Shown here: piece after piece, positions 23,867 through 38,365 of the stretch | Position numbering within the stretch: the first letter of the stretch is position 1 | Layout: each line of letters begins with the position of its first letter | Assembly: GCA_964440225.1 (NCBI GenBank) | Contig: CAYTRM010000002.1 | Span: 1-38,960 of the forward strand | Origin: an uncultured Thermoleophilia bacterium | GTDB lineage: Bacteria; Actinomycetota; Thermoleophilia; UBA2241 | Reading direction: 5' to 3' | DNA: 38,960 bases | The notes under the pieces: model-generated | What the model saw: only the letters and a program-made list of their open reading frames with translations | Told to the model about the DNA's origin: nothing | The model's database searches: none | Translations under genes and position numbers: made by a program

Positions 23867-24295
23867 ATGGTGACCATGAACAAGGCCAAGGTGCTCTTCA
23901 TCTGCACCGGCAACTCCGCGCGCAGCCAGATGGCCGAGGGCCTGCTGCGCGAGAAGGCCGGCGACCGCTTCGAAGCGTTCAGCGCCGGCCTCGAGCCCGA
24001 GCCGGTCAAGCCTCAGGCGGTAGCGGCCATGGCCGAGATCGGCATCGACATCAGCGGCCAGCAGGCCAAGGACATCGCCGCCTATCTGGGGCAGGTGCAC
24101 TTCGGCTACCTGATCACGGTGTGCGACCGGGCGAACGCGAACTGCCCCATCTTCCCGGGAGTGAGCCAGCGGCTGCACTGGTCGCTCGACGACCCCGCCG
24201 CCGCCGAGGGCGCGGAGGCCGAGCGGCTGGATGTGTTCAGGCGCGTGCGCGACGAGCTCACGGTGCTGATCGACGAGTTCACGGCGACTCACTGA
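23867..24295 (+). CDS. arsC: Arsenate reductase, thioredoxin-coupled LMW-PTP type
   Basis: P-loop CTGNSARS (CX5R) in VLFICTGNSARSQMAEG, plus the two downstream redox cysteines (ITVCDRANANCP). This is the pI258/Bacillus-type Cys triad. Confidence 0.9.
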   Translation: MVTMNKAKVLFICTGNSARSQMAEGLLREKAGDRFEAFSAGLEPEPVKPQAVAAMAEIGIDISGQQAKDIAAYLGQVHFGYLITVCDRANANCPIFPGVSQRLHWSLDDPAAAEGAEAERLDVFRRVRDELTVLIDEFTATH

Positions 24296-24374: not shown

Positions 24375-25481
24375 TCAGGCGCAGCGCACCACGCCCCGCG
24401 CCCAGAGACAATCGCCGCAGGTCGGGTGCGGGTTGCCGAGGCAGTCCTCCTCGTTGGTCTCCGCAAGCTCGCAGGCGCAGTCGGTGCAGGGCGGGAAGTC
24501 GAAGCGACGCACGCGGTCGCGAAACGCCGTGTAGTCGGGCTTGGCCCAGACGGCGGCGAGCGTCTCGTCAGGAAGGCGGCCCGCCTCCCAGCGCAGCATC
24601 CGCTTCGCCCGCCCGCGCACGAAGCACGTGTAGGTGTGGAGCAGCGGCGGGCACGGGCTGACTCCACCGTGCCAGGCAACGGCGCACGCATCGGCCTCGA
24701 CGAAGGGACAGTGACTGCGCGTCGCCTCCGGGTCGGCGCCGAAGAAGGAGACCGGCCCCGAACGCGTGAGCGCCTCACCGAGCGCCGCGCCGACCTGCCG
24801 GTCCCAGTCGAACGCCGGCAGCCGCCAGCGCGGCGCGGCGGTCGTCACCGCGCCGCTGAGCGAACTCGCGTGGTGGTCGTAGAGCGTCTCGGCGAGCAGG
24901 TCGGGCGTGTACGCCAACACGTTGCTGACGATGATGAAGGTCGCGCCGAGCTGGGCGGCGAGCCGGCCGAGACCGGGGAGCTCGCCGATGTTCGAGCGCA
25001 TCGCGACGAACTCGACGCCGATGCGTATCGAAGGGCCGTAGTTCGGCCCCTTGGCATCGTGCACCCGCTGCACGTTCTCAATCACCTGCTCCAGCGACGC
25101 TCCCGAGCGCACGCGTCCGAAGGCCTCGGCGTTCGCGCCGTCGATGCTGACCACGAGCTGGTCGAGGCCGGCGCCCAGGAGCCCGGCGGCCATGGCGTCG
25201 TCCAGAAGGAGGGCGTTGGTGGTGACCTCTGTCCGCAGGCCGCGCTCCTTGGCGAGCCGCACCATGTCGAGAAAGCGCGGATGGAGGAGCGGCTCGCCGA
25301 GCCCCATGAAGGCCACGGTCCCGCCTGCGCCAAGACCGTCGACGACCGCCTCGTACGTCGGCCACGACATGAAGCCCTCGGGCTCGTCCCACGAGTGGCG
25401 GACGCACGTGGCGCAGGCCAGGTTGCAGGCGTTGGTCGGCTCGACGTAGACCTTGGCCGGACGATCGTCGTCTGTCGTCAT
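24375..25481 (-). CDS. Radical SAM enzyme with C-terminal SPASM-like Cys-rich domain
   Basis: VEPTNACNLACATCVRH (CX3CX2C radical SAM cluster). GLGEPLL glycine-rich SAM motif. About eleven Cys in the last roughly 120 aa (...SHCPFVEADAC...SPCPP...YTCF...PPCTDCACE...DCLGNPHPTCGDCLWARGVVRC). Confidence 0.85.
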   Translation of the reverse strand: MTTDDDRPAKVYVEPTNACNLACATCVRHSWDEPEGFMSWPTYEAVVDGLGAGGTVAFMGLGEPLLHPRFLDMVRLAKERGLRTEVTTNALLLDDAMAAGLLGAGLDQLVVSIDGANAEAFGRVRSGASLEQVIENVQRVHDAKGPNYGPSIRIGVEFVAMRSNIGELPGLGRLAAQLGATFIIVSNVLAYTPDLLAETLYDHHASSLSGAVTTAAPRWRLPAFDWDRQVGAALGEALTRSGPVSFFGADPEATRSHCPFVEADACAVAWHGGVSPCPPLLHTYTCFVRGRAKRMLRWEAGRLPDETLAAVWAKPDYTAFRDRVRRFDFPPCTDCACELAETNEEDCLGNPHPTCGDCLWARGVVRCA

Positions 25482-25490
25482 CCGGGCCTC

Positions 25491-25739
25491 TCAGTCCTTC
25501 CGCTTCGCGGCCCGGAGCTCACCGAGCGTCGGGAACGTCAGGGCTTCGGCCTCGCACATCGAGGCGCAGTGCGAGCAGCCCTCCATGCAGGAGTCCTTGG
25601 CTACGACGCGTACGTGATCGTCCACCAGGCCGTACACGCCCTGCCGGCAGAACTCGAGGCAGACCCTGCAGTCGGTGCAGGCACGTTCGTCAAGGGTCGG
25701 CCCCCACCGGAACCCGTCGTCGCCTTCACCTCGTGTCAT
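25491..25739 (-). CDS. Small 2x[4Fe-4S]-type ferredoxin, co-transcribed with the radical SAM gene
   Basis: The internal ATG (cat 25737-25739) follows GGAGG. Motifs CTDCRVCLEFC (CX2CX2CX3C) and CMEGCSHCASMC. The stop is 9 nt before the radical SAM start. Confidence 0.7.
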   Translation of the reverse strand: MTRGEGDDGFRWGPTLDERACTDCRVCLEFCRQGVYGLVDDHVRVVAKDSCMEGCSHCASMCEAEALTFPTLGELRAAKRKD

Positions 25740-25998
25740 CGCCACCGTCCGACCTCCGGTCAAGAACCACACTCGCTCAGGGCGCTTGACGCCAGTGTAC
25801 GCGGGCGGGCCCGAGAGCGCAGCCGCACTGAAGAGGCACTGCTCGGCTTCCGGACTCCGCGTCGGCGGCCGCGACGGCCGGCCGGCCGGCGCAACGGAGT
25901 CCGGATCCGCGCCAAAGCCATGACGCCGGTGCGCGGGTCACCGGCGCCGCGCATCGCTCGGCGTGCGGACACTCGACAGTTACGTTAGGGTAGGGTAC

Positions 25999-28833: not shown

Positions 28834-29262
28834 CTACACCCGCATGAGCTCCCTGAACGCGTCGAGGGCGCGCGCCGCCGCATCGCCGTCGATGGAGTGA
28901 AAGGTCCACTTGCCGCGGGCCTCCTCGCGTACGAGGCCCGCCTCACGCAGCACGCGCAGGTGATACGACACCTTGGACTGCGCAAGGCCGAAGTGCTCCT
29001 GGAAGTCGCAGCCGCAGACGCCCGCGGGATCGCCTCCGCCCGGCACGCCGCGCTGCGACGGCTCCGGCAGTCGGCAGCAGGACCTGCCCTGGGCCATCAC
29101 GTCCAGCATGCCGAGCCGGATGGGGTCGCTGAGCGCCTTGGCGACCCGCGTGAGTTGCTCGACCTCCGCGGGCGCAGGGGCAGGGCAGCAGCGCTCACCG
29201 GGCAGCGCCTGCGCCTCGCAGCACCGGCCCATCGTCTCGCCCGCGTTCCGCGACGACGTCAT
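28834..29262 (-). CDS. arsR: ArsR/SmtB family regulator with unusual N-terminal and internal Cys-pair motifs
   Basis: Winged-helix core ALSDPIRLGMLDVM...LAQSKVSYHLRVLREAGLV. N-terminal extension MGRCCEAQALPGERCCP. Insertion GRSCCRLPEPSQRGVPGGGDPAGVCGCDF at the usual metal-site position. Divergent from arsM. Confidence 0.8.
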   Translation of the reverse strand: MTSSRNAGETMGRCCEAQALPGERCCPAPAPAEVEQLTRVAKALSDPIRLGMLDVMAQGRSCCRLPEPSQRGVPGGGDPAGVCGCDFQEHFGLAQSKVSYHLRVLREAGLVREEARGKWTFHSIDGDAAARALDAFRELMRV

Positions 29263-29372: not shown

Positions 29373-30230
29373 GTGAGCCAGATCCCCGACGACGCCGACC
29401 TCAAGACCCGCATCCGCGACCACTACGCCGAGCGCGCCGTGGCGGCGAGCCAGTCCAAGCCGTGCGGCTGCGGCTGCAGCTGCGGGCCGGCCGCGGTCGA
29501 GCCTCTCGACGACGTCGCCCGCGGGCTCTACGCCGTCGACGAGACCAGCGACCTCCCCGCCGAGGCCGTCCTCGCCAGCCTCGGCTGCGGCAACCCGACG
29601 GCGCTGGCCGACCTGCAGCCCGGCGACGTGGTGCTCGACCTGGGGAGCGGCGGCGGCATCGACGTACTGCTCAGCGCCCGCCGCGTCGGCCCCACCGGCA
29701 AGGCCTACGGCCTCGACATGACCGACGAGATGCTGGCCCTGGCCCGCGAGAACCAGCGCAAGGCCGGCGTGACCAACGTGGAGTTCCTCAAGGGCGAGCT
29801 CGAGGCGATCCCCCTGCCGGACGCCAGCGTCGACGTCATCATCAGCAACTGCGTCGTCAACCTCTCGACCGACAAGGACGCGGCGCTGGCCGAGGCGCTC
29901 CGGGTGCTCAAGCCCGGCGGGCGGCTGGCGATCAGCGACATCGTGTTCCAGGGAGACATGAGCCTGATCCCCCGGGAGCTGCTGGAGGACGCCGACGCGT
30001 GGTCGGCGTGCATCTCCGGCGCGCTCGAGGAGCGCGACTTCCTCGCCCGGCTGAGTCGCGCCGGCTTCGCCGATGCATCGATCGAGGTGACCAACGTCTA
30101 CGACGGCTCCGCCGAGAACAACATGTGCGGCGCGCCGCCGCTGCCGGCCGGCGTGCAGCTCGCAAGCGGCTTCGTGCGCGCCGTCAAGCCGGCGCCGGCC
30201 TCCTGCTGCTCGCCGGGGTGCTGCTGCTGA
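29373..30230 (+). CDS. arsM: Arsenite S-adenosylmethionine methyltransferase
   Basis: SAM motif [12 protein letters not shown]. The conserved ArsM cysteines are in context: N-terminal CGCGCSCG cluster, [14 protein letters not shown] and WSACISGA. Cys-rich tail [12 protein letters not shown] start at 29373. Confidence 0.9.
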
Positions 30231-30377: not shown

Positions 30378-30677
30378 GTGAGCCTACGCATCGAGATCGA
30401 CCACCAGCGGATCGCGGAGTTCTGTCGCCGCAATCGAATCGCCCGGCTCTCGTTCTTCGGCTCCGTCCTGCGTGACGACTTCGGCCCCGAGAGCGACGTA
30501 GACGTACTCGTCCAGTTCGAGCCCGGCTGCATTCCGAGCCTGTTCGGGCTGGCCCGCATGCAGCGCGAACTCACAGAGATCCTCGGTCGCCAGGTCGACT
30601 TCAAGACGCCGGGGTTCCTGAGCCGGTACATCAGAGATCGCATACTGGCGGAGGCACAGGAAGAGTATGTCGCATAG
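30378..30677 (+). CDS. mntA: MNT-type nucleotidyltransferase antitoxin (second HepT/MntA pair)
   Basis: FFGSVLRDDFGPESDVDVLVQF motif. GTG start at 30378. Overlaps the downstream DUF86 gene by 11 nt. Confidence 0.85.
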   Translation: MSLRIEIDHQRIAEFCRRNRIARLSFFGSVLRDDFGPESDVDVLVQFEPGCIPSLFGLARMQRELTEILGRQVDFKTPGFLSRYIRDRILAEAQEEYVA

Positions 30678-31020
30678 CGACGACATCACCCGACTCCGGC
30701 ACATCCTCGACGGGTCCAAGAGGGCGATACGCATCTTGAACGGTCGTTCATTGGCGGAGCTGGCCGCCGACGAGAGTGACGATCTCGCTCTGGAGCGGTG
30801 CCTGGAGATCGTCGGCGAGGCCGCGAACCGCGTGGGTCCATCGACAATGGCGCAACTCGACGACCTGCCTTGGCGCGACATGATCGACATGCGAAACGTC
30901 ATCATCCACGCCTATCCAGACGTAGAGCTCGAGACGGTGTGGCGAACGGTGGTCGAGGATCTCCCGCCCCTCGTGGCGGTCCTGGAGCGCTTCTTTGGCG
31001 CCCGGGATCCCGCAAAGTAG
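30667..31020 (+). CDS. hepT: HepT-like (DUF86/HEPN) RNase toxin (second pair)
   Basis: Rx4HxY motif RNVIIHAYPDVELETVW. Typical size and coupling to the MNT gene. Confidence 0.85.
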   Translation: MSHSDDITRLRHILDGSKRAIRILNGRSLAELAADESDDLALERCLEIVGEAANRVGPSTMAQLDDLPWRDMIDMRNVIIHAYPDVELETVWRTVVEDLPPLVAVLERFFGARDPAK

Positions 31021-31048: not shown

Positions 31049-31402
31049 CTACGAAGTCCGGTCGCCGTCCTCCACGGGTGACATCGCGAGGGTCATCGAA
31101 TCGGCCAGGCTGAGGCCGGCGGCGACCTGCATGGCCTTGAGCATGCCCAGCGGCACCGGGCACCAGGGATAGGGTCCCTTGAGGCTCTCCCTGCAGAGGG
31201 CGTGCAGGGGACTCTCCTTGCGTGTGTCCATCTCCGCGTACACATCCAACGGACCGTGCTCGGCGAGCGCGGCGACGAGCGCCGCCACGTGGTCGCACCT
31301 GGATCCGCTGGTGAAGCGGGCCTTCCGCCCTCCCCCGACGGCTGCGGCCACCGTCGCGGTGAACCCGCAGACACCGGGGTCGATCACCGTCCGCGCCCGC
31401 AC
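31049..31402 (-). CDS. Small (117 aa) four-cysteine protein of unknown function, last gene of the six-gene operon
   Basis: AAAGGAGG RBS then GTG at 31402. MRARTVIDPGVCGFTATV...GSRCDHV...LHALCRESLKGPYPWCPVPLGMLKAM. The composition is protein-like. I recognise no family with confidence. Confidence 0.55.
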   Translation of the reverse strand: MRARTVIDPGVCGFTATVAAAVGGGRKARFTSGSRCDHVAALVAALAEHGPLDVYAEMDTRKESPLHALCRESLKGPYPWCPVPLGMLKAMQVAAGLSLADSMTLAMSPVEDGDRTS

Positions 31403-31460
31403 TGCGCCTCCTTTGTCCCCGTGAGGTTCCGCAGGACTCCTGTCGTGTCGGCTCGTCCCG

Positions 31461-32207
31461 TCACGCCACCAGTCTCCAGGCCATCGTCGCGGCGATGAAG
31501 AAGAGGAGCACGCCGATCGAGGTCTTCACCTGCGCCGCCTGGAGCTTTCGGTGCATGAGCCAGGAGCCGATCAGGGCGCCGATGATCGAGGCCCCGGCGG
31601 TCCAGACGAGCAGCGTGAGGTCGATGCCGGCCACGGAGGCCTGGCCGAGGAAGCCCGTGAACGACGCGAACACGACGACGAAGGCGGTGGTGCCGGCGGC
31701 GCGCTTGGCGTCCAGCCCGAGCCACACGAGCGCAGGGACCACGAAGTTGCCTCCCCCGACGCCGAGCATCCCACCGAGGAAGCCGGCCGCGCCGCCAACG
31801 CCGGCGCCGACTCCCAGGAGTTCGCGGCGGCCGGCCAGTTCGTGCGGCTTCGGCCTGTACCAGAGCATCATGGCGCCGGCGAAGACCAGAAAGGCGACGA
31901 ACATCCACTTCAGCGTCGTCACCGGAACGAAGGAGCTCGTGTAGGCCCCGAGCGGCGAAAGAATCGTCGCAACGATCACGATCGGTACGGCGATGCGGAA
32001 GTCGACCAGCTTGGCCGGGATGTAGCGCACGCAGGCGAAGGCCATGGCGATGGCGTTGAGCAGCAGCGCCGTGGCCTGCGCCGAGTGCATCTCCACCCCC
32101 AGTACAAGGTAGACGGGAACGAGAATGAACGCCGCGCCCAACCCGGCGACCGTGAGGACGATCGTGAAGACCAGCGTGACCAGCGCCGCGATGATGTAGA
32201 GAGTCAT
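31461..32207 (-). CDS. TauE/SafE (TSUP) family anion-exporter-like membrane protein
   Basis: About eight hydrophobic helices. Characteristic internal repeats ...VAGLGAAFILVP... and ...GMLGVGGGNFVVPAL... Confidence 0.85.
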   Translation of the reverse strand: MTLYIIAALVTLVFTIVLTVAGLGAAFILVPVYLVLGVEMHSAQATALLLNAIAMAFACVRYIPAKLVDFRIAVPIVIVATILSPLGAYTSSFVPVTTLKWMFVAFLVFAGAMMLWYRPKPHELAGRRELLGVGAGVGGAAGFLGGMLGVGGGNFVVPALVWLGLDAKRAAGTTAFVVVFASFTGFLGQASVAGIDLTLLVWTAGASIIGALIGSWLMHRKLQAAQVKTSIGVLLFFIAATMAWRLVA

Positions 32208-32237
32208 GTGCCCGCCTCTCGCTTCAGCCGAGAGTCG

Positions 32238-32609
32238 TCAGACCGCCGGAGAAGCCGCGCCGTCGACCGCCGCCAGCACGCTCTCCACGAGATCGGGCAG
32301 GCGGGTCTCGTCGGTGAGATCGCCGTTCTTCTCGTAGCAGATCGCATCGGTGACCAGGAGGCTCGTCTCGGGCTCGACGTCGACGCTCTGCAGCGCCTTG
32401 GTCGCGCAAGCCACGTTGCAGCCGTTGACGGCGATGTGGTGGTCGTAGTTCTCGTGCGCCTTCTTGACGATGCCGGGGATCTGCAGAGGCAGGCCCAGAG
32501 CGCAGACGAAGCCGATCTTGCCGGGTCGCCGGCCGATCGCCTCGACGACCGCCTTGGTCGACATCTGGCCGACGTTGCAAGCGCCGGAGCAGGGCATGAC
32601 ACCGATCAT
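32238..32609 (-). CDS. DGC-domain putative zinc/metal-binding protein
   Basis: GGGAGGGG RBS then the internal ATG (cat 32607-32609). MIGVMPCSGACNVGQMS...IAVNGCNVACATKAL match the conserved PCSGxCNxG and (D/N)GC motifs of the DGC family. Confidence 0.75.
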   Translation of the reverse strand: MIGVMPCSGACNVGQMSTKAVVEAIGRRPGKIGFVCALGLPLQIPGIVKKAHENYDHHIAVNGCNVACATKALQSVDVEPETSLLVTDAICYEKNGDLTDETRLPDLVESVLAAVDGAASPAV

Positions 32610-32622
32610 GACAACCCCTCCC

Positions 32623-33240
32623 TCACGTCCGCTGCGGCGCCGGCTCGTAGCCTGCGCATGGGATGCACATCGGCGCACCGTCCTTCATGCGCACGTAGCG
32701 GTCGAACACGTACTCGCCGCAGCTTGAGCACATGGTCTTGTTGAACGAACCCTTGACCGGCGTGTAGGTGAAGTCCGGCAGATCCTCGACGATGAACATG
32801 TCGGCGTCGGACTGCTTGTACGTCCAGTCGATGACCTCGTCGGTGACGTCTGCCGGTATCTGCGAGGGCTCGACGCCGCGCTTGCGATAGGCGAAGAACT
32901 CGAAGGCCCCGAAGCCGTCCACAAACGACGGCTTGAGCGCGTACCGCACGGCGCCTTTGTCGGGGTGGTAGAAGACGGCGGCCAGCTTGCCGTAGTACGT
33001 CTTCTTCATGACGGTCTTGCCGTAGGTGGCGCCGGTCGCGGCCTGGAGCCCGTCCGCCATGCACGTCTGCGGGTGCCCCTCGCCGATCTCCGGGAAGACG
33101 AAGAAGCCGTGGTCCTGCTCTCGCTCCACTCCCAGGCGCTGCATGGCGAGCAGGCCCATGCGATAGCCGAGCGGCATGAACGGGCAGCGGTGGCCGTGGA
33201 ACTCGAAGGCCCACTCGGGGGGTGTGAGTGATGTGGTCAT
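32623..33240 (-). CDS. FmdE/FwdE-domain protein with C-terminal zinc ribbon
   Basis: AAGGAGGAA RBS. FHGHRCPFMPLGYRMG (FmdE signature). C-terminal CSSCGEYV...x...CIPCAG (CxxC...CxxC). Confidence 0.8.
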   Translation of the reverse strand: MTTSLTPPEWAFEFHGHRCPFMPLGYRMGLLAMQRLGVEREQDHGFFVFPEIGEGHPQTCMADGLQAATGATYGKTVMKKTYYGKLAAVFYHPDKGAVRYALKPSFVDGFGAFEFFAYRKRGVEPSQIPADVTDEVIDWTYKQSDADMFIVEDLPDFTYTPVKGSFNKTMCSSCGEYVFDRYVRMKDGAPMCIPCAGYEPAPQRT

Positions 33241-33300
33241 GATTCCTCCTTGTCAGGTGCCGTACGCGGGTGGGACGCCCAGCCCGATCCTCCCGGCGGC

Positions 33301-34521
33301 TCAGCCAAGGACGGCGTTGAACAGGAAGCCGACGAGCATGATGCCGGCGCCGACCACGCCGAGGAAGGTGAAGATGAGCGGCCACTTGAGGACCTTCTTG
33401 AGGATGATCGTCTCCGGCAGTGAGAGCGCGATGACGGCCATCATGAAGGCGAGCACGGTGCCGAGCGCGGCTCCCTTGCCGAGCAGCGCCTCCACGATGG
33501 GGATGATGCCGGCGGCGTTGGAGTACATGGGGATGCCGAAGAGCACGGCGAGCGGCACGCTCCACCAGGCGTCGGCGCCCATGATGCCGGCGATGAAGTC
33601 CTCCGGCACGTACCCGTGGATGACGGCGCCGACGGCGATGCCGGCGATCACGTAGAGCCACACCTTGCCGACGATGTCCTTGACCGCCTGCCAGGCGTAG
33701 GCCACGCGCCCGTCCCAGTCCAGCTCCTGCACGTCCTCCCCGTCGCCCATGCGGATCTCGCGCACCCAGTCCTCGACGTAGCGGTCCATGCCCAGACGGC
33801 CGATGATCCACCCCGCGACGATGGCGATGGTGAGGCCGGTGACGAGGTACAGGCCGGCCACCCTCCAGCCGAAGAGGCCGTAGAGCAGCACCAGCGCGAT
33901 CTCGTTGACCATGGGCGCGGCGATGAGGAAGGAGAACGTGACGCCCAGCGGGATGCCGGCCTCGACGAAGCCGATGAACAGCGGAACGGCCGAGCAACTG
34001 CAGAACGGGGTGACGGTGCCCAGTCCGGCCGCCATGACGTTGCCCGTGGTCTCGCGCCGCCCGCGCAGCAGCGCGCGCGTGCGCTGCGGGCTGAAGAACG
34101 AGCGCACCATGCCGACGCCGAACACGACGATCGTGAGCAGCAGCAGCACCTTGACGGTGTCGTAGACGAAGAACTCGAGCGCGGAGGCGAAGCGCCCCGT
34201 GGTGAGCCCGAGCACGTCGACGAAGAGCCAGGTGACGATGGGCAGCCAGTAGTGGTACACGACTGCCCAGAGCGCGACCCCGAGGGTGACGCGCGCCCAC
34301 CAAGGCAGGCGGCCGAAGGCGCGTGCGGCGGCCCGGAACGGCGCGCGCGGGCCGCCGCTCGACTTCTCGGGCGGAGCGCCCGCGGACGCCGTCGCCGGCG
34401 TGCCGCACTCGCAGGCCGGGACGACGCGCTGCGGATCGGCCGGCGGGTCGGTCACGACGGCGGCCGTCTCCTCCGCCGCGGCCGGCCCGGCGATGTCCTC
34501 ATGCACCGTGCCGGACGCCAC
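33301..34521 (-). CDS. PF03773-type permease (family that includes the organoarsenical exporter ArsP) with a roughly 70-aa Ala/Pro-rich N-terminal extension
   Basis: Signature GTVTPFCSCSAVPLF plus multiple transmembrane helices. The proposed GTG start (cac 34519-34521) is 1 nt after the upstream stop and follows GGGGAGG. The start is uncertain, and the longer ORF to 34701 would overlap the upstream gene. Confidence 0.8.
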   Translation of the reverse strand: MASGTVHEDIAGPAAAEETAAVVTDPPADPQRVVPACECGTPATASAGAPPEKSSGGPRAPFRAAARAFGRLPWWARVTLGVALWAVVYHYWLPIVTWLFVDVLGLTTGRFASALEFFVYDTVKVLLLLTIVVFGVGMVRSFFSPQRTRALLRGRRETTGNVMAAGLGTVTPFCSCSAVPLFIGFVEAGIPLGVTFSFLIAAPMVNEIALVLLYGLFGWRVAGLYLVTGLTIAIVAGWIIGRLGMDRYVEDWVREIRMGDGEDVQELDWDGRVAYAWQAVKDIVGKVWLYVIAGIAVGAVIHGYVPEDFIAGIMGADAWWSVPLAVLFGIPMYSNAAGIIPIVEALLGKGAALGTVLAFMMAVIALSLPETIILKKVLKWPLIFTFLGVVGAGIMLVGFLFNAVLG

Positions 34522-34522
34522 G

Positions 34523-35260
34523 TCAGACCTCCCCAGGCCCGGCGAACCCCGTGATGAGCGTGGTCTCGGCGAGCTGGCGCTGGAGCCGCTCCCAGTCGTA
34601 GGGCACGCGCGCGAACTCGACGAACTCCGGCGTGCCGAGCCGCGCCGGATCGACGATCGCGTAGCAGACGCGCCAGTCGCCGTCCTTGGGACGGCCTCCA
34701 CTCCCCACGTTCACGAACGTCGTATCGCCGACGGGGCGAGCGTACGGCACGTGCGTGTGTCCGAAGAGGATGGCGGGATGCGGGTACTCCTCGGCCATGC
34801 GGGCCATGGCCTTCTCCGGCCGGTCCTCGAACAGGTACTCGTTGATGCGCCGCGGGCTGCCGTGCACGGCGAGGATGTCGCCGCCGGGGGTCGCGAGCGT
34901 GAAGTGGTCTTCGAGCGTGCGCAGGTACTCCTTGACCTCAGCGGACGCGGCCTCCTGCGTCCAGGCGAGCGAGGCCGCGCCCTCGGCGCGTTGCTCGTCG
35001 GTCTTGTAGACGCAGCCGCAGTCGCCGGTCTCGAAGCCGATGCCCTGGTCGTAGTTGCCCATGAGGCTGGGGATGCCGCGGTCGCGCACGAGCAGGGCGA
35101 CCTCGTTCGGCCGGGGCCCGTAGCCGACCAGGTCGCCGAGAGAGAGCGTCAGACCCAGTTGACGGGCCTCAACGTCCGCCAGGATAGCCTCGAGGCCCGG
35201 CAGATTGCCGTGCACGTCGGAGAAGACGGCGAACGGCTCGGCTGTGCGGATGGTCTTCAC
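34523..35260 (-). CDS. Calcineurin-like metallophosphoesterase (YfcE/MJ0936-like)
   Basis: GAGGGAGG RBS then GTG (cac 35258-35260). Motifs FSDVHGN, GDLVGYG, GNYD, AVHGSP, GHTH, plus a GDCGC element. Confidence 0.8.
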   Translation of the reverse strand: MKTIRTAEPFAVFSDVHGNLPGLEAILADVEARQLGLTLSLGDLVGYGPRPNEVALLVRDRGIPSLMGNYDQGIGFETGDCGCVYKTDEQRAEGAASLAWTQEAASAEVKEYLRTLEDHFTLATPGGDILAVHGSPRRINEYLFEDRPEKAMARMAEEYPHPAILFGHTHVPYARPVGDTTFVNVGSGGRPKDGDWRVCYAIVDPARLGTPEFVEFARVPYDWERLQRQLAETTLITGFAGPGEV

Positions 35261-35316
35261 GCGGTGGTGCCTCCCTCGGACTCTGGGCACGAGCGATATC
35301 ATGCTGTACACTTTAT

Positions 35317-35348
35317 ATCAACGTATCTTGACCATAAACGATTGTCAA
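35317..35348. promoter_or_regulatory. Operator-like elements in the AT-rich divergent promoter between the six-gene operon and acr3
   Basis: ATCAACGTATCTTGA (35317-35331) matches the palindrome at 29309-29323 apart from one inserted base. An overlapping inverted repeat TTGAC-N11-GTCAA lies at 35328-35348. This is the most AT-rich stretch locally. Confidence 0.4.
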
Positions 35349-35397
35349 TGTACGGTGCTCGGCGTCAGCCCACGCCGTCACCAAGGAGACGACCTCC

Positions 35398-36513
35398 ATG
35401 CCCCAGAGTACGATCAAGCGGCTCTCGTTCCTCGACCGGTACCTCACCGGCTGGATCTTCCTCGCCATGGCCGTCGGCGTGTTCCTCGGTTGGGCCTTCA
35501 CCGGTGTCCCCGACTTCATCAACCAGTTCAACGTCGGCACGACGAACATCCCCATCGCCATCGGGCTCATCGTGATGATGTATCCGCCGCTCGCCAGGGT
35601 GAAGTACGAGGAGCTGGGCGACGTCTTCCGCGACTACAAGATCCTGGGCCTGTCGCTGGTGCAGAACTGGCTCATCGGCCCCTTCCTCATGTTCTTCCTG
35701 GCCATCGCCTTCCTGAGCGACTACCCCGAGTACATGGTGGGGCTCATCATGATCGGCCTCGCGCGCTGCATCGCCATGGTCATCGTCTGGAACCAGCTCG
35801 CCAAGGGCGACACCGAGTACGCCGCCGGCCTGGTCGCCTTCAACAGCGTCTTCCAGGTGCTCTTCTACAGCCTCTTCGCCTGGATCTTCGTGACCAAGCT
35901 GCCGCCGCTCTTCGGCCTCGAGGGCGTCGCCGTCGACGTGACCATCGGGCAGATCGCCCAGAGCGTCGCCATCTACCTCGGCATCCCGTTCGTCGCCGGC
36001 ATGCTCACGCGCTACGTCGGCATCAAGTACAAGGGCCGCGAGTGGTACGAGCAGAAGTTCATCCCGCGCATCAGCCCGCTCACGCTCATCGCGCTGCTGT
36101 TCACCATCCTCGTGATGTTCAGCCTCAAGGGCGACCTCATCGTCGAGTTGCCGCTCGACGTCGTGCGCATCGCCGTGCCGCTGCTCATCTACTTCGTCGT
36201 CATGTTCTTCGTGAGCTTCTTCATGGGGCGCAAGATCGGCGCCGACTACTCCAAGACCGCGACCCTGTCGTTCACCGCCGCCAGCAACAACTTCGAGCTC
36301 GCGATCGCCGTGAGCGTCGCCGTGTTCGGGATCGGCTCGGGCGTGGCGTTCGCCGCCGTCATCGGGCCGCTCGTGGAGGTGCCCGTCCTGATCGGCCTCG
36401 TCAACGTGTCCCTCTGGCTGGGGCGCAAGTACTGGGGCATGACCGACGAACCCGTACCAGCGGCCGTAGCCGCCGGCGCCGACGAGGTCGCCTGCGACCC
36501 ACCGAGGAGCTGA
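35398..36513 (+). CDS. acr3: ACR3-family arsenite efflux permease
   Basis: [24 protein letters not shown]...[14 protein letters not shown]...[13 protein letters not shown] (conserved ACR3 Cys) ...[14 protein letters not shown]. Confidence 0.92.
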
Positions 36514-36514
36514 C

Positions 36515-36901
36515 ATGGACATCGCCAAGGACCCGGCGGGCCCCGGGAGCATCACGGATTTCGTCCCGTTCTTCAAGGCCATCGGCAACCCGACGCGCGC
36601 CCAGATCATCGAGTTCCTGCTGCGCGGCGAGCGCTGCGTCTGCGAGATGACCGGCCCGCTCGACCTGAGCCAGCCGCTGGTCTCGCACCACCTCGCCCTG
36701 CTCCGCGACGCCGGGCTGGTGCGCATGCGCAGCGAGGGCGCGCGCACGTACTACTCGCTCGAGTGGGAGAGGTTCGACGACGACCTCAAGGCCTTCGCCG
36801 GCCACGTGGAGCGCCTGCACGCCGCCCCACCTATCCCCAGCAACGCCGACGAGGTGTGCGCTACGGCCGCGACGAAGCCGGCGCGCCGCAACGCTTCGTG
36901 A
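36515..36901 (+). CDS. arsR: ArsR family arsenite-responsive repressor (canonical CVC site)
   Basis: FKAIGNPTRAQIIEFLLRGERCVCEMTGPLDLSQPLVSHHLALLRDAGLV, with the CVC metal site in the position of the classic ELCVCDL motif. Starts 1 nt after the acr3 stop. Confidence 0.9.
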   Translation: MDIAKDPAGPGSITDFVPFFKAIGNPTRAQIIEFLLRGERCVCEMTGPLDLSQPLVSHHLALLRDAGLVRMRSEGARTYYSLEWERFDDDLKAFAGHVERLHAAPPIPSNADEVCATAATKPARRNAS

Positions 36902-36953
36902 CCCGCACCGACTCGTGACCGCAACCACTGATGACCAAACGAAGGAGACACCC

Positions 36954-37208
36954 GTGAAGCTCGAGATCCTCGGTTCCGGCTGCGCCAACTGCCAGAAGCT
37001 GATGGCCCTCACCGAAGAGGTCGTGCGCGAGCTCGGCGTCGCCGACGCCGAGCTCGTCAAGGTGGAGGACTTCCCCACCATCATGGCCTACGGCGTGATG
37101 GCGACGCCCGCCCTCGCGATCGACGGCAAGCTCGTCATGAGCGGCAAGGTGCCGTCGAAGGCCGAGGTCACCGGTCTCGTCACCACTGCTCTGGCCGCAC
37201 AGGGATGA
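36954..37208 (+). CDS. Small thioredoxin-fold protein (Thioredoxin_3 / redox-active disulfide protein 2 type)
   Basis: GAAGGAGA RBS then GTG at 36954. VKLEILGSGCANCQKL...ATPALAIDGKLV. The family is often found with ArsR and PF03773 permeases. Confidence 0.8.
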   Translation: MKLEILGSGCANCQKLMALTEEVVRELGVADAELVKVEDFPTIMAYGVMATPALAIDGKLVMSGKVPSKAEVTGLVTTALAAQG

Positions 37209-37657
37209 CGAGAGTCCGCGACTTCGGCAGGCGCGCCGCGCTCCTGCCGGCCGGCGCGCTGCTCGCCGCTCTGGTCGTCGGCGCCCTCGCGCTCGCCGGG
37301 TGTGGCGGATCCGCCGGCGAAGCGGGCCCCTCCGCCACGCCCGCCCAGGCGCACAGCCCGGGCGCCTCCGCCAGCGTCACGTTCGTCGAGCTGGGCTCGG
37401 ACAAGTGCATCCCATGCAAGGAGATGCGGCCCGTCATGGACGCCGTCCAGGCCACCTTCGGCGACCAGCTCGAGATCGTCTTCTACGACGTCTGGGAGGA
37501 TGCCGCACCGGCCGAGGAGTACGGCATCCAGATGATCCCGACCCAGGTGTTTCTCGACGAGAACGGCGAGGAGTTCCATCGCCACGTGGGCTTCTACCCG
37601 CAGGCTGACATCGAGGCGCTCCTCATCGAGCAGGGCCTCACGAAACTCACTCCGTAA
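37205..37657 (+). CDS. Thioredoxin-like lipoprotein (TlpA/ResA-like, CIPC active site)
   Basis: ATGA overlap with the upstream gene. Lipobox LALAGC after a signal peptide. VELGSDKCIPCKEMRP (CxxC) and a thioredoxin fold (IPTQVFLDENGEE). Confidence 0.8.
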   Translation: MTRVRDFGRRAALLPAGALLAALVVGALALAGCGGSAGEAGPSATPAQAHSPGASASVTFVELGSDKCIPCKEMRPVMDAVQATFGDQLEIVFYDVWEDAAPAEEYGIQMIPTQVFLDENGEEFHRHVGFYPQADIEALLIEQGLTKLTP

Positions 37658-37669
37658 CCGGCGCCCGCA

Positions 37670-38365
37670 GTGCTCGAACAGATTCTGAGCTCCCTCAGCA
37701 CCTGGCTCGGCCAGTCGCTCGGCTGGGCGCTCCTGGCCGCCTTCGCCTGGGGCGTCGTCAGCATCGTCTTCAGCCCGTGTCACCTCGCCAGCGTGCCGCT
37801 GGTCGTCGGCTTCATCTCGACGCAGGAGGGCGCCACCACACGGCGCGCCTTCCGGCTCTCGCTGGTCTTCTCCCTGGGCGTCCTCGTCTCCATCGCGCTC
37901 ATCGGTGTGGTGACCGCCTCACTCGGCCGCCTTCTCGGCGACCTCGGCTCCATCGGCAACGTGGCGGTGGCCATCGTCTTCTTCGTCTTCGGCCTGTACC
38001 TGATGGACCTGCTCCCGCTGAACTGGGCTTCCCGCCTGCCGGCCACCACGCGGCTTCGCGGGATGCCCGCGGCCCTGGGCCTCGGCCTGGTGTTCGGCGT
38101 CGGCCTCGGCCCCTGCTCCTTCGCGTTTCTCGCACCGCTGCTCATGGTCGTGTTGGGCCAGGCAGAGACCGACTACACCCTCGCGGTCGGCCTTCTCGCC
38201 GCATTCGCCCTCGGGCACTGCGGCGTGATCGCGCTTGCCGGCACGGCGGCACATGGCGTCCAGAAGCTCGTGTCGTGGGGCAGCGGGTCCCGGGTGGCGC
38301 GCTGGATCCGCCGTGCCTGCGGGGCGCTGGTCTTCCTGGCTGGACTGTATCTCCTCTTCGGATAG
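37670..38365 (+). CDS. ccdA: CcdA/DsbD-family transmembrane thiol-disulfide electron transporter
   Basis: Six predicted transmembrane helices. Two conserved membrane-embedded Cys motifs: FSPCHLASVP and GLGPCSFAFLAP. Confidence 0.85.
   Translation: MLEQILSSLSTWLGQSLGWALLAAFAWGVVSIVFSPCHLASVPLVVGFISTQEGATTRRAFRLSLVFSLGVLVSIALIGVVTASLGRLLGDLGSIGNVAVAIVFFVFGLYLMDLLPLNWASRLPATTRLRGMPAALGLGLVFGVGLGPCSFAFLAPLLMVVLGQAETDYTLAVGLLAAFALGHCGVIALAGTAAHGVQKLVSWGSGSRVARWIRRACGALVFLAGLYLLFG

Follow-up and report, generated by a model that had tools for sequence, protein, structure and literature searches.

The subject of this study is a six-gene operon on the minus strand (positions 31049–35260) of a 38,960-nucleotide (nt) stretch of DNA, the whole of which is called the window below, from an uncultured Thermoleophilia bacterium of the lineage UBA2241 (GenBank assembly GCA_964440225.1, contig CAYTRM010000002.1). 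On sequence evidence, we are inclined to read the six genes as an accessory arsenic-detoxification operon under ArsR control, and it seems on balance probable that the operon was assembled in Thermoleophilia-type genomes from cassettes that travel separately elsewhere. Two of its parts would be of types with published arsenic roles, a reductase type represented by a metallophosphoesterase (MPE) and an exporter type represented by an ArsP permease. The other four, namely the FmdE-like, DGC, TauE/SafE (TSUP) and DUF6951 proteins, are good candidates for undescribed arsenic-handling parts of a soil actinobacterial arsenic island. What is new is the set of recurrent, undescribed accessory cassettes in an otherwise known arsenic resistance (ars) island, with functions that we infer for the four families. 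The genes of the operon and the block upstream of it are as follows.

34523–35260, minus strand: MPE of the ars-operon type (Pfam Metallophos_2 PF12850, 1.4e-17; PF00149, 4.6e-12)
33301–34521, minus strand: ArsP-family PF03773 permease, cluster-2 type (Pfam ArsP_1, 2.5e-75)
32623–33240, minus strand: FmdE-like metal-binding protein (Pfam FmdE PF02663, 5.9e-23, plus zf-dskA_traR)
32238–32609, minus strand: DGC-domain protein (Pfam PF08859, 5.2e-19; 68.7 bits, cut-off 27)
31461–32207, minus strand: TauE/SafE (TSUP) membrane transporter (Pfam PF01925, 1.4e-39)
31049–31402, minus strand: DUF6951 subfamily-i protein of 117 aa (Pfam PF22263, 4.3e-18)
35312–35352, no strand: conserved block between divergent operons, candidate overlapping promoters and ArsR operator (invariance in five loci)

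The GC content of the window is about 70%, and its nearest relatives are metagenome-assembled genomes (MAGs) of Thermoleophilia. All six open reading frames (ORFs) are intact, and their Pfam matches exceed the curated cut-offs. With starts refined against homologues, the intergenic gaps from the MPE gene to the DUF6951 gene are 1, 60, 13, 30 and 58 nt, and five of the six genes have a GGAGG-type ribosome-binding site, the TSUP gene having a weaker one. An earlier note on this DNA, made from the sequence alone, had described six tightly spaced minus-strand genes, most of them with such sites, transcribed divergently from acr3-arsR; this description was confirmed, including the acr3 gene, which is supported by TIGR00832 and separated from the operon by 137 nt. 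The domains and cysteine motifs quoted there were likewise all found, and its small cysteine protein is DUF6951.

In the intergenic region, a 41-bp block (35312–35352) is identical across five related loci whose sequences diverge on either side of it, and it is kept even in a locus whose upstream gene is arsD-CMD, not acr3. The block contains an inverted repeat, TTGAC-N11-GTCAA (35328–35348). Because this repeat alone is not significant (chance expectation 0.35), the conservation of the block, and not the repeat, is the evidence. We regard the block as putative overlapping promoters with an ArsR operator, the gene for a CVC-type ArsR being adjacent. Scans of the high-GC window sequence for sigma-70 promoters and intrinsic terminators gave nothing usable, and a simple terminator scan of the six-gene operon found no convincing internal terminator. 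A shared operon is supported by the gaps of 1–60 nt, the common direction and the conserved block upstream of the first gene.

The first gene encodes an MPE of the calcineurin-like metallophosphoesterase fold family (match to PDB 3RQZ, 5e-22), in which a GDCGC motif supplies a CGC pair at residues 81/83 and GNYD replaces GNHD/E. It is 36–49% identical to MPEs in ars operons on plasmids of Hymenobacter (arsR-DUF6428-MPE-GNAT-acr3), Rubrobacter (arsM-arsR-MPE-arsC-arsC-MIP) and Paraclostridium (arsR-MPE-acr3-arsM), and MPE homologues adjoin acr3 in Thermoplasmatota loci. The CGC pair is invariant in the MPE alignment and corresponds to residues 74/76 of the Hymenobacter and Paraclostridium proteins. 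All ars-linked MPEs examined (that of the window and those of loci L092, L093 and L094) have GNYD where the 3RQZ-type MPE has GNHD. Taken together, GNYD and CGC would mean that the ars-linked MPEs have lost a catalytic histidine and gained a CxC pair. A 2025 paper on the Paraclostridium operon (PMC12124457), citing Shen et al. (2024), reports that Car1 of Rufibacter tibetensis is an arsenate reductase of the metallophosphoesterase type that needs Cys74 and Cys76 for activity, and gives the MPE of that operon (Orf1 of arsR-orf1-acr3-arsM) as about 40% identical to Car1. The window MPE has in common with this Car1/Orf1 type the calcineurin-like fold, a CxC pair at the aligned position, GNYD and location in an ars island. 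The difference is that the gene for the window MPE stands first in an operon whose other genes encode ArsP and four proteins of unknown function, whereas genes of the Car1/Orf1 type adjoin acr3 or arsM. The window MPE is thus a candidate Car1-like arsenate reductase. The earlier note had held that only the permease family has a described arsenic role and that none is assigned to the phosphoesterase; since the window MPE shares the CxC pair of Car1-type MPEs, which are reported to be arsenate reductases, this statement is out of date.

The second gene encodes a permease with an ArsP Pfam score of 253.8 bits (cut-off 32.3). A C(S/T)C motif is universal in PF03773, and a preceding tPF marks cluster 2 of the family (PMC4435449). 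The window protein carries VTPFCSCS (tPF-CSC) within a membrane-spanning segment, and by this motif it is an ArsP cluster-2 protein; C174 and C176 do not vary in the alignment. It falls under the NCBIfam equivalog cut-offs for SaoE (124 vs 325 bits) and SO_0444 (89 vs 300 bits). The Pfam match begins at residue 171 of a 466-aa ORF, and the N-terminal extension of about 150 residues contains a PACEC (CEC) motif; PACxC is shared by relatives with as little as 66% identity, and the extension bearing it is missing from shorter ArsP homologues. ArsP of Campylobacter jejuni is reportedly an efflux permease for methylarsenite and roxarsone(III) (PF03773; TCDB ArsP family). It has in common with the window permease the Pfam family and the universal C(S/T)C in a membrane segment, a likeness by family and motif and not by alignment of the two sequences, and the window permease differs by its N-terminal extension with PACxC.

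For the neighbourhood survey, loci were taken from one-genome-per-species collections, and six-frame ORFs were scored by phmmer with the window proteins and a few relatives as queries. FmdE, TSUP, DGC and DUF6951 recur in ars-type clusters of well over a hundred species-level genomes, and the carriers are mostly uncultured anaerobes of the PVC phyla, Chloroflexi, Deltaproteobacteria, Thermoplasmatota and Firmicutes. The earlier note had proposed the six genes as one candidate system linked to ars genes. The note named as refuting the case that the module usually lies away from ars genes in other genomes, and the survey did not bear this out. The linkage stands, as all four function-unknown families adjoin ars-type genes in other species; it is also backed by a negative control for DUF6951 (given below) and by a CVC thiolate site in most co-located ArsRs (62/66 in DUF6951 loci, 26/33 in DGC loci and 34/50 in FmdE loci). 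The single system had to be given up: outside Thermoleophilia-type loci the genes are split into separate cassettes, namely MPE, ArsP-Trx3-DGC (Trx3 being an MTH895/ArsE-family thioredoxin-like protein), FmdE-TSUP and DUF6951. Because order and content vary even among the closest relatives (for example, TSUP-FmdE-DGC-DUF6951 in relative L176), the six-gene unit is a local assembly. TSUP is present in 93% of FmdE loci and in 7% and 4% of DUF6951 and DGC loci, and ArsM in 54% of DUF6951 loci and 5% of FmdE loci; these contrasts reveal specific pairings beyond a shared island.

A fuller module was observed in another Thermoleophilia UBA2241 locus (L004, 3100–10754), where further genes encode an ArsD-CMD fusion and a CMD-family protein, a "putative Fe-S cluster" protein of family PF04060, DUF169 and, as a paralogue with 38% identity, a second FmdE; the ArsD there is a gene separate from the operon families. 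In loci of long-read MAGs (L006/L015, L178 and L205), module genes are frame-split, with the MPE in 4–5 pieces and ArsM and Acr3 fragmented, and this looks like assembly indel error, not true pseudogenes.

The DGC protein has five invariant cysteines (C7, C11, C36, C64 and C68; alignment A7) in motifs including PCSGAC and NGCNVAC. Its AlphaFold2 (AF2) model (pLDDT 94) has a flavodoxin-like alpha/beta fold; as we read its secondary structure, strands 1–3 are followed by the conserved cysteines. Against PDB the model gave no match at E <= 1e-3, only generic flavodoxin-like folds. PCSGAC resembles the P-loop position of low-molecular-weight protein tyrosine phosphatases (LMW-PTP), a lead only; the LMW-PTP structures that the model matched have a high root-mean-square deviation. 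Of 27 archaeal and Firmicute DGC loci, 89% carry Trx3, 85% ArsP, 41% Acr3, 33% ArsD, 22% ArsC and 19% MPE, and 18 of the 27 have Acr3, ArsM, ArsD or ArsC. A search of plasmids for DGC gave no match. In Pseudodesulfovibrio mercurii ND132, the operon arsR5-arsP-arsE-DGC ("operon C") is induced by As(III)/As(V) in RNA-seq, and DGC is described as a protein of unknown function (bioRxiv 10.1101/2022.10.17.512643). The gene set of ArsR, ArsP, a PF13192 thioredoxin and a PF08859 DGC protein is shared with the window, where, unlike in ND132, the thioredoxin gene lies in the divergent acr3 operon and the DGC gene between those for FmdE and TSUP; FmdE, TSUP and DUF6951 are not reported in operon C. The ND132-like arrangement (ArsP-Trx3-DGC) recurs in the surveyed archaeal and Firmicute loci.

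Two DGC clusters have further neighbours. On a metagenome contig (L008/L009, 3348–5008), two nitroreductase genes lie directly upstream of a divergent arsR and MPE-ArsP-Trx3-DGC cluster; we take them to be reminiscent of the ArsEFG pathway for nitro-aromatic arsenicals. Near a Halanaerobium ArsR-ArsP-Trx3-...-DGC-DUF169 cluster (L007), in which Usp, Nitro_FeMo-Co and Fer4 genes stand between Trx3 and DGC, there is a gene for a 96-aa CC_Se_fam protein (PF28096; 2856–3146).

DUF6951 is a small family, with 336 representative clusters in 1.84 billion proteins, and comprises two subfamilies; since the full-family alignment was too diverse for a locus scan, the family was split into these. The window protein has four cysteines, of which C12, C36 and C81 are family-invariant (110 representatives); the FKAMQVAAG-type C-terminal helix is present and the CC of the usual GCCxGC motif is lost. 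For subfamily i we obtained 76 loci, which exclude the Thermoleophilia-type relatives and many of which are on truncated contigs. Their sources include Planctomycetota, Verrucomicrobiota, Kiritimatiellia, Lentisphaerae, Hydrogenedentes, Latescibacteria, Armatimonadota and KSB1. An Acr3 or ArsM gene occurs in 55 loci (72%); ArsM is the immediate neighbour of DUF6951 in 30, and 24 contain an LMW-PTP ArsC cluster. The typical order is ArsR-ArsP-Trx3-(DGC)-Trx-CcdA-DUF6951-ArsM-Acr3, nearly all genes being co-directional. The sister subfamily ii (HxxCPVP) served as a negative control: among 42 of its loci that were 4 kb or longer, only 2 contain ars-type genes, which rules out ars linkage of the whole family. 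The subfamily-ii context (loci L210–L289) is heterogeneous, with neighbours resembling MttB-type methyltransferases and RACo-type corrinoid activases noticed by eye in 3–5 loci. Domain fusions gave no clue to function, as longer members show DUF6951 only, one of them with a partial Fer4.

In its proposed function, DUF6951 may be compared with the arsenic metallochaperone ArsD. Each is a small soluble protein that has three conserved cysteines and whose gene stands beside that of an arsenite-handling partner, a likeness that is a functional analogy only: there is no relation in sequence or fold, the predicted fold of DUF6951 is different, the ArsD family PF06953 has no match among the six operon proteins, and the partners of DUF6951 would be ArsM, Acr3 or ArsP, not ArsA.

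The FmdE-like protein has a His2Cys2 site formed by H15, H17, C19 and C60 (HGHRCP) and a C-terminal four-Cys zinc ribbon (CSSC...CIPC), and these ligand residues are invariant in its homologue alignment (A5). It matches Ta1109 of Thermoplasma acidophilum (PDB 2GVI) with E = 8.5e-54 and aligned metal ligands; Ta1109 likewise has a His,His,Cys,Cys site and a C-terminal treble-clef zinc finger, the fourth ligand of the finger being Asp there and Cys in the window protein. More than 1000 homologues were found (E <= 1e-5). The best 120 are all at least 70% identical, their labels including Saccharicenans, Aminicenantales, Deltaproteobacteria, Azonexus, KSB1, Micrarchaeia, Nanoarchaeia and Bathyarchaeia, and the genome loci (L096–L175 set; 400 genome loci matched) add Chloroflexi and further Betaproteobacteria. 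The partner TSUP is only about 50% identical, compared with at least 70% for FmdE across Bacteria- and Archaea-labelled genomes, a pattern that points to very extensive horizontal transfer, to strong constraint, or to the two together. Cultivated organisms with the FmdE-TSUP cluster include Zoogloea oleivorans Buc (L110), Anaerolinea thermolimosa IMO-1 (L125) and Thermanaerothrix daxensis GNS-1 (L119).

FmdE and TSUP are a near-obligate pair: of 76 FmdE loci, 93% contain a TSUP gene, which in 63 loci is a same-strand neighbour. The same loci contain Trx3 (63%), ArsP (57%), ArsR (51%) and Acr3 (38%, 29/76), and ArsP or Trx3 in 52 (68%). The family name derives from formylmethanofuran dehydrogenase, as FmdE was historically tied to an operon for a Mo/W enzyme (PMC2954224); no fmd/fwd genes were found among the annotated genes of the window or the recurrent FmdE neighbour clusters. 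The TSUP match is full-length (profile positions 2–237 of 237) to the Pfam family that includes the TauE/SafE exporters of sulfite and sulfoacetate. Those exporters belong to sulfonate catabolism, whereas the window TSUP, paired with an FmdE-like protein, lies among genes for resistance to metals or metalloids; no sulfonate-catabolic context was seen for TSUP, its surroundings being ars or metal resistance.

A part of the operon might handle sulfur species and not a metalloid, with FmdE-DGC-TSUP-DUF6951 exporting sulfite or sulfide-derived or sulfonate anions, or carrying persulfides, in those anoxic and sulfidic habitats where arsenic disturbs the metabolism of thiols and sulfur. Besides the name of TauE/SafE in Pfam, this draws on the AF2 model of DUF6951 (pLDDT 78), whose best PDB folds are all IscU/SufU scaffolds and SufE/CsdE sulfur acceptors, on the Rubrobacter ars plasmid, in which TauE stands beside genes for a sulfur-transferase-domain protein and an MBL-fold hydrolase, and on the co-occurrence of thioredoxin and CcdA genes in the loci. 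The fold matches are weak, however (best Foldseek E = 1.2e-3, TM 0.45–0.5), and the sequence profiles are negative: an hmmsearch of DUF6951 against PDB matched no solved protein, and hhalign against E. coli IscU gave a probability of 0.2%, so that a diverged IscU/SufU was rejected and a three-cysteine site on a scaffold-like fold may be taken as a lead only. The annotated genes of the window include none for sulfonate, taurine or sulfite metabolism, and the partner TSUPs have no conserved cysteine, their substrate not being readable from sequence. We consider a sulfur role improbable.

The weak IscU-like fold with three cysteines also bears on a maintenance role, in which the cysteine-rich proteins would protect or rebuild metal centres damaged by arsenite (Fe-S, Zn, or Mo/W cofactors) and would not detoxify arsenic. 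PF04060 Fe-S, small Fer4, Nitro_FeMo-Co and DUF169 proteins among the module relatives, and the historical Mo/W link of FmdE (PMC2954224), would fit such a role. The close and specific pairings FmdE-TSUP and DGC-ArsP, each with a membrane transporter, fit transport better than cofactor repair, and the loci showed no genes for Fe-S assembly (SufBCD, IscS). This explanation appears very unlikely.

Several observations weigh against reading the six genes as an arsenic operon. The complete set was seen only in Thermoleophilia-type loci, and even there relative L001 showed no FmdE, DGC or TSUP match, while other relatives add genes for PF04060, DUF169, a second FmdE and CMD proteins. For the MPE, the link to Car1 runs through homologues and a citing paper, not through the Car1 sequence itself, and the MPE need not be the sole reductase because a gene resembling LMW-PTP ArsC is found at a distance of 7 kb. 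That DUF6951 shows no link in sequence to any solved or characterised protein counts here as well. The CVC site of the co-located ArsRs is common to Cd/Pb/Zn sensors such as CadC. FmdE-TSUP loci are rarely near arsM (5%) and often near CDF-like genes (22 loci), and P-type ATPase-, RND- and chromate-transporter-like genes recur there, these four labels having been assigned to neighbour clusters by reading representative sequences; because of such neighbours we read the FmdE-TSUP loci as metal-resistance islands. The pair also stands alone among insertion sequence (IS) elements on 23 enterobacterial plasmids. Because of the metal-transporter neighbours and these stand-alone pairs, the substrate of FmdE-TSUP is maybe not arsenic. 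This substrate is the weakest point of the analysis, as the neighbours favour a broad soft-metal role as much as an arsenic one.

On the Kosakonia plasmid NZ_CP018017.1 (L095, 7983–9356), the two genes of the pair are separated by 10 nt and lie among IS110/IS26/Tn3 remnants. The pair was observed on 22 further large plasmids, the hosts across the set being Citrobacter, Klebsiella, Enterobacter and Kosakonia, and a second TauE and a LysR fragment are located upstream of the plasmid pairs.

These observations lead to the strongest competing explanation, a general defence against soft metals or thiophilic cations (Zn, Cd, Pb, Hg, Cu, Sb) that is not specific for arsenic. FmdE would then be a Zn/Ni/Cd-binding partner of a TSUP exporter of metals or metal-thiolates, ArsP-Trx3-DGC would handle several thiophilic species, and presence in ars islands would reflect co-selection in metal-resistance islands. 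In FmdE structures, Zn or Ni is bound at the His2Cys2 site, the second cysteine of which bears an unidentified adduct, and most PF02663 genes adjoin genes for metal-ion transporters (PMC2954224), in agreement with the neighbours and plasmid pairs given above. Relatives in PF03773 include a Cu/Zn efflux equivalog, and only 34 of the 50 ArsRs in FmdE loci have the CVC site. The commonest identifiable resistance genes beside DUF6951-i and DGC are, however, Acr3, ArsM, ArsD and ArsC, the DGC operon of ND132 is arsenic-responsive, and the flanking genes of the window with a curated family call (acr3 and arsM) are all arsenic-related. On this evidence, a soft-metal defence is rather unlikely as an explanation for the accessory genes.

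In the arsenic-detoxification operon that we favour, the steps might be as follows. By homology to described proteins, the Car1-type MPE would reduce arsenate to arsenite through its CxC pair, and arsenite would be exported by Acr3 or methylated by ArsM, both encoded by flanking operons. ArsP would export trivalent, probably methylated, arsenicals by way of the CSC pair in the membrane. Judging from neighbourhoods, conserved cysteines and predicted folds, the remaining four proteins may be thiol-based partners of the membrane and enzyme components, so arranged that each transporter or enzyme has its own dedicated small cysteine protein. DGC and the ArsE-type thioredoxin would work with ArsP. 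The His2Cys2 protein FmdE may load or regulate TSUP, giving a second export route for soft metalloid species. DUF6951 may bind As(III) or methylarsenite (MAs(III)) on its three invariant cysteines and hand it to ArsM or Acr3, in analogy with ArsD. A thio- or methyl-arsenical substrate of the operon is pure inference, and a thio-arsenical substrate for FmdE-TSUP is speculation.

A wider and more doubtful proposal is that FmdE-TSUP, DGC and DUF6951-i are three unrecognised classes of arsenic/antimony resistance determinants. Each small cysteine protein could then be a metalloid-binding protein serving one partner, TSUP, ArsP, and ArsM or Acr3, respectively, which we put forward tentatively. With the same reserve, FmdE-TSUP might be a horizontally mobile exporter of a thiolated or otherwise modified metalloid anion in anoxic, sulfidic habitats.

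The other arsenic-related features of the window are listed below.

35398–36513, plus strand: acr3 arsenite efflux permease (TIGR00832, 456 bits, cut-off 283; Pfam SBF)
36515–36901, plus strand: ArsR/SmtB repressor with an ERCVCEM (CVC) site (Pfam HTH_5; NCBIfam)
36915–37208, plus strand: MTH895/ArsE-family thioredoxin-like protein (Trx3), CANC (TIGR00412, 95.7 bits, cut-off 62; PF13192)
37205–37657, plus strand: thioredoxin-like protein with an N-terminal signal and a lipobox-like LAGC (Pfam Thioredoxin_2)
37670–38365, plus strand: CcdA/DsbD-type membrane thiol-disulfide electron transporter (Pfam DsbD_TM)
29373–30230, plus strand: ArsM arsenite methyltransferase, on the far side of the operon (NF008823, 314 bits, cut-off 263)
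28834–29262, minus strand: second ArsR-family regulator, Cys-rich, divergent from arsM (Pfam HTH_5; NCBIfam)

The thioredoxin-like protein at 37205–37657 is probably extracytoplasmic, judging from its N-terminus. ArsM has an N-terminal CGCGCSC stretch and an unusually cysteine-dense C-terminal tail. Between the end of the operon and arsM lies a toxin-antitoxin pair of an MNT-type nucleotidyltransferase and a HepT-like RNase (30378–31020, plus strand), and relatives L005 and L176 have a related MNT/HepT pair about 6 kb from the module. An FMN_red gene also lies beyond the operon on the side of arsM and the second arsR. The LMW-PTP gene (23867–24295, plus strand) matches the ArsC-type proteins of DUF6951 loci (8.7e-37) and may encode a second arsenate reductase; it is located about 4 kb outside the ars island, with prfC and a radical SAM gene in between. 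This radical SAM/SPASM gene (24375–25937, minus strand) is followed by a 148-aa ORF, which matches a small Fer4 protein that recurs beside DGC/FmdE elsewhere (1.9e-13). The remainder of the window is ordinary chromosome, with prfC, hisG, a solute-binding protein and a PocR/HD-domain sensor protein.

Since ars islands are among the best-catalogued detoxification systems, the four families were also sought in the literature. A full-text search found no paper mentioning DUF6951 and none tying FmdE or TauE/TSUP to arsenic resistance, and DGC was met in the arsenic literature searched in one preprint only, as a member of an arsenic-induced operon. Named ars genes were listed in 2022 from arsA to arsW-type letters (PMC9144182), and none of the FmdE-like, TSUP, DGC or DUF6951 proteins is among them. 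If the four families act on arsenic, surveys that trace its cycling by genes, whether in paddy soils, in sediments or in digesters, would miss part of the machinery, and the part missed would operate where methylated and thiolated arsenicals form. Four function-unknown Pfam families thereby gain a concrete hypothesis together with named likely partners.

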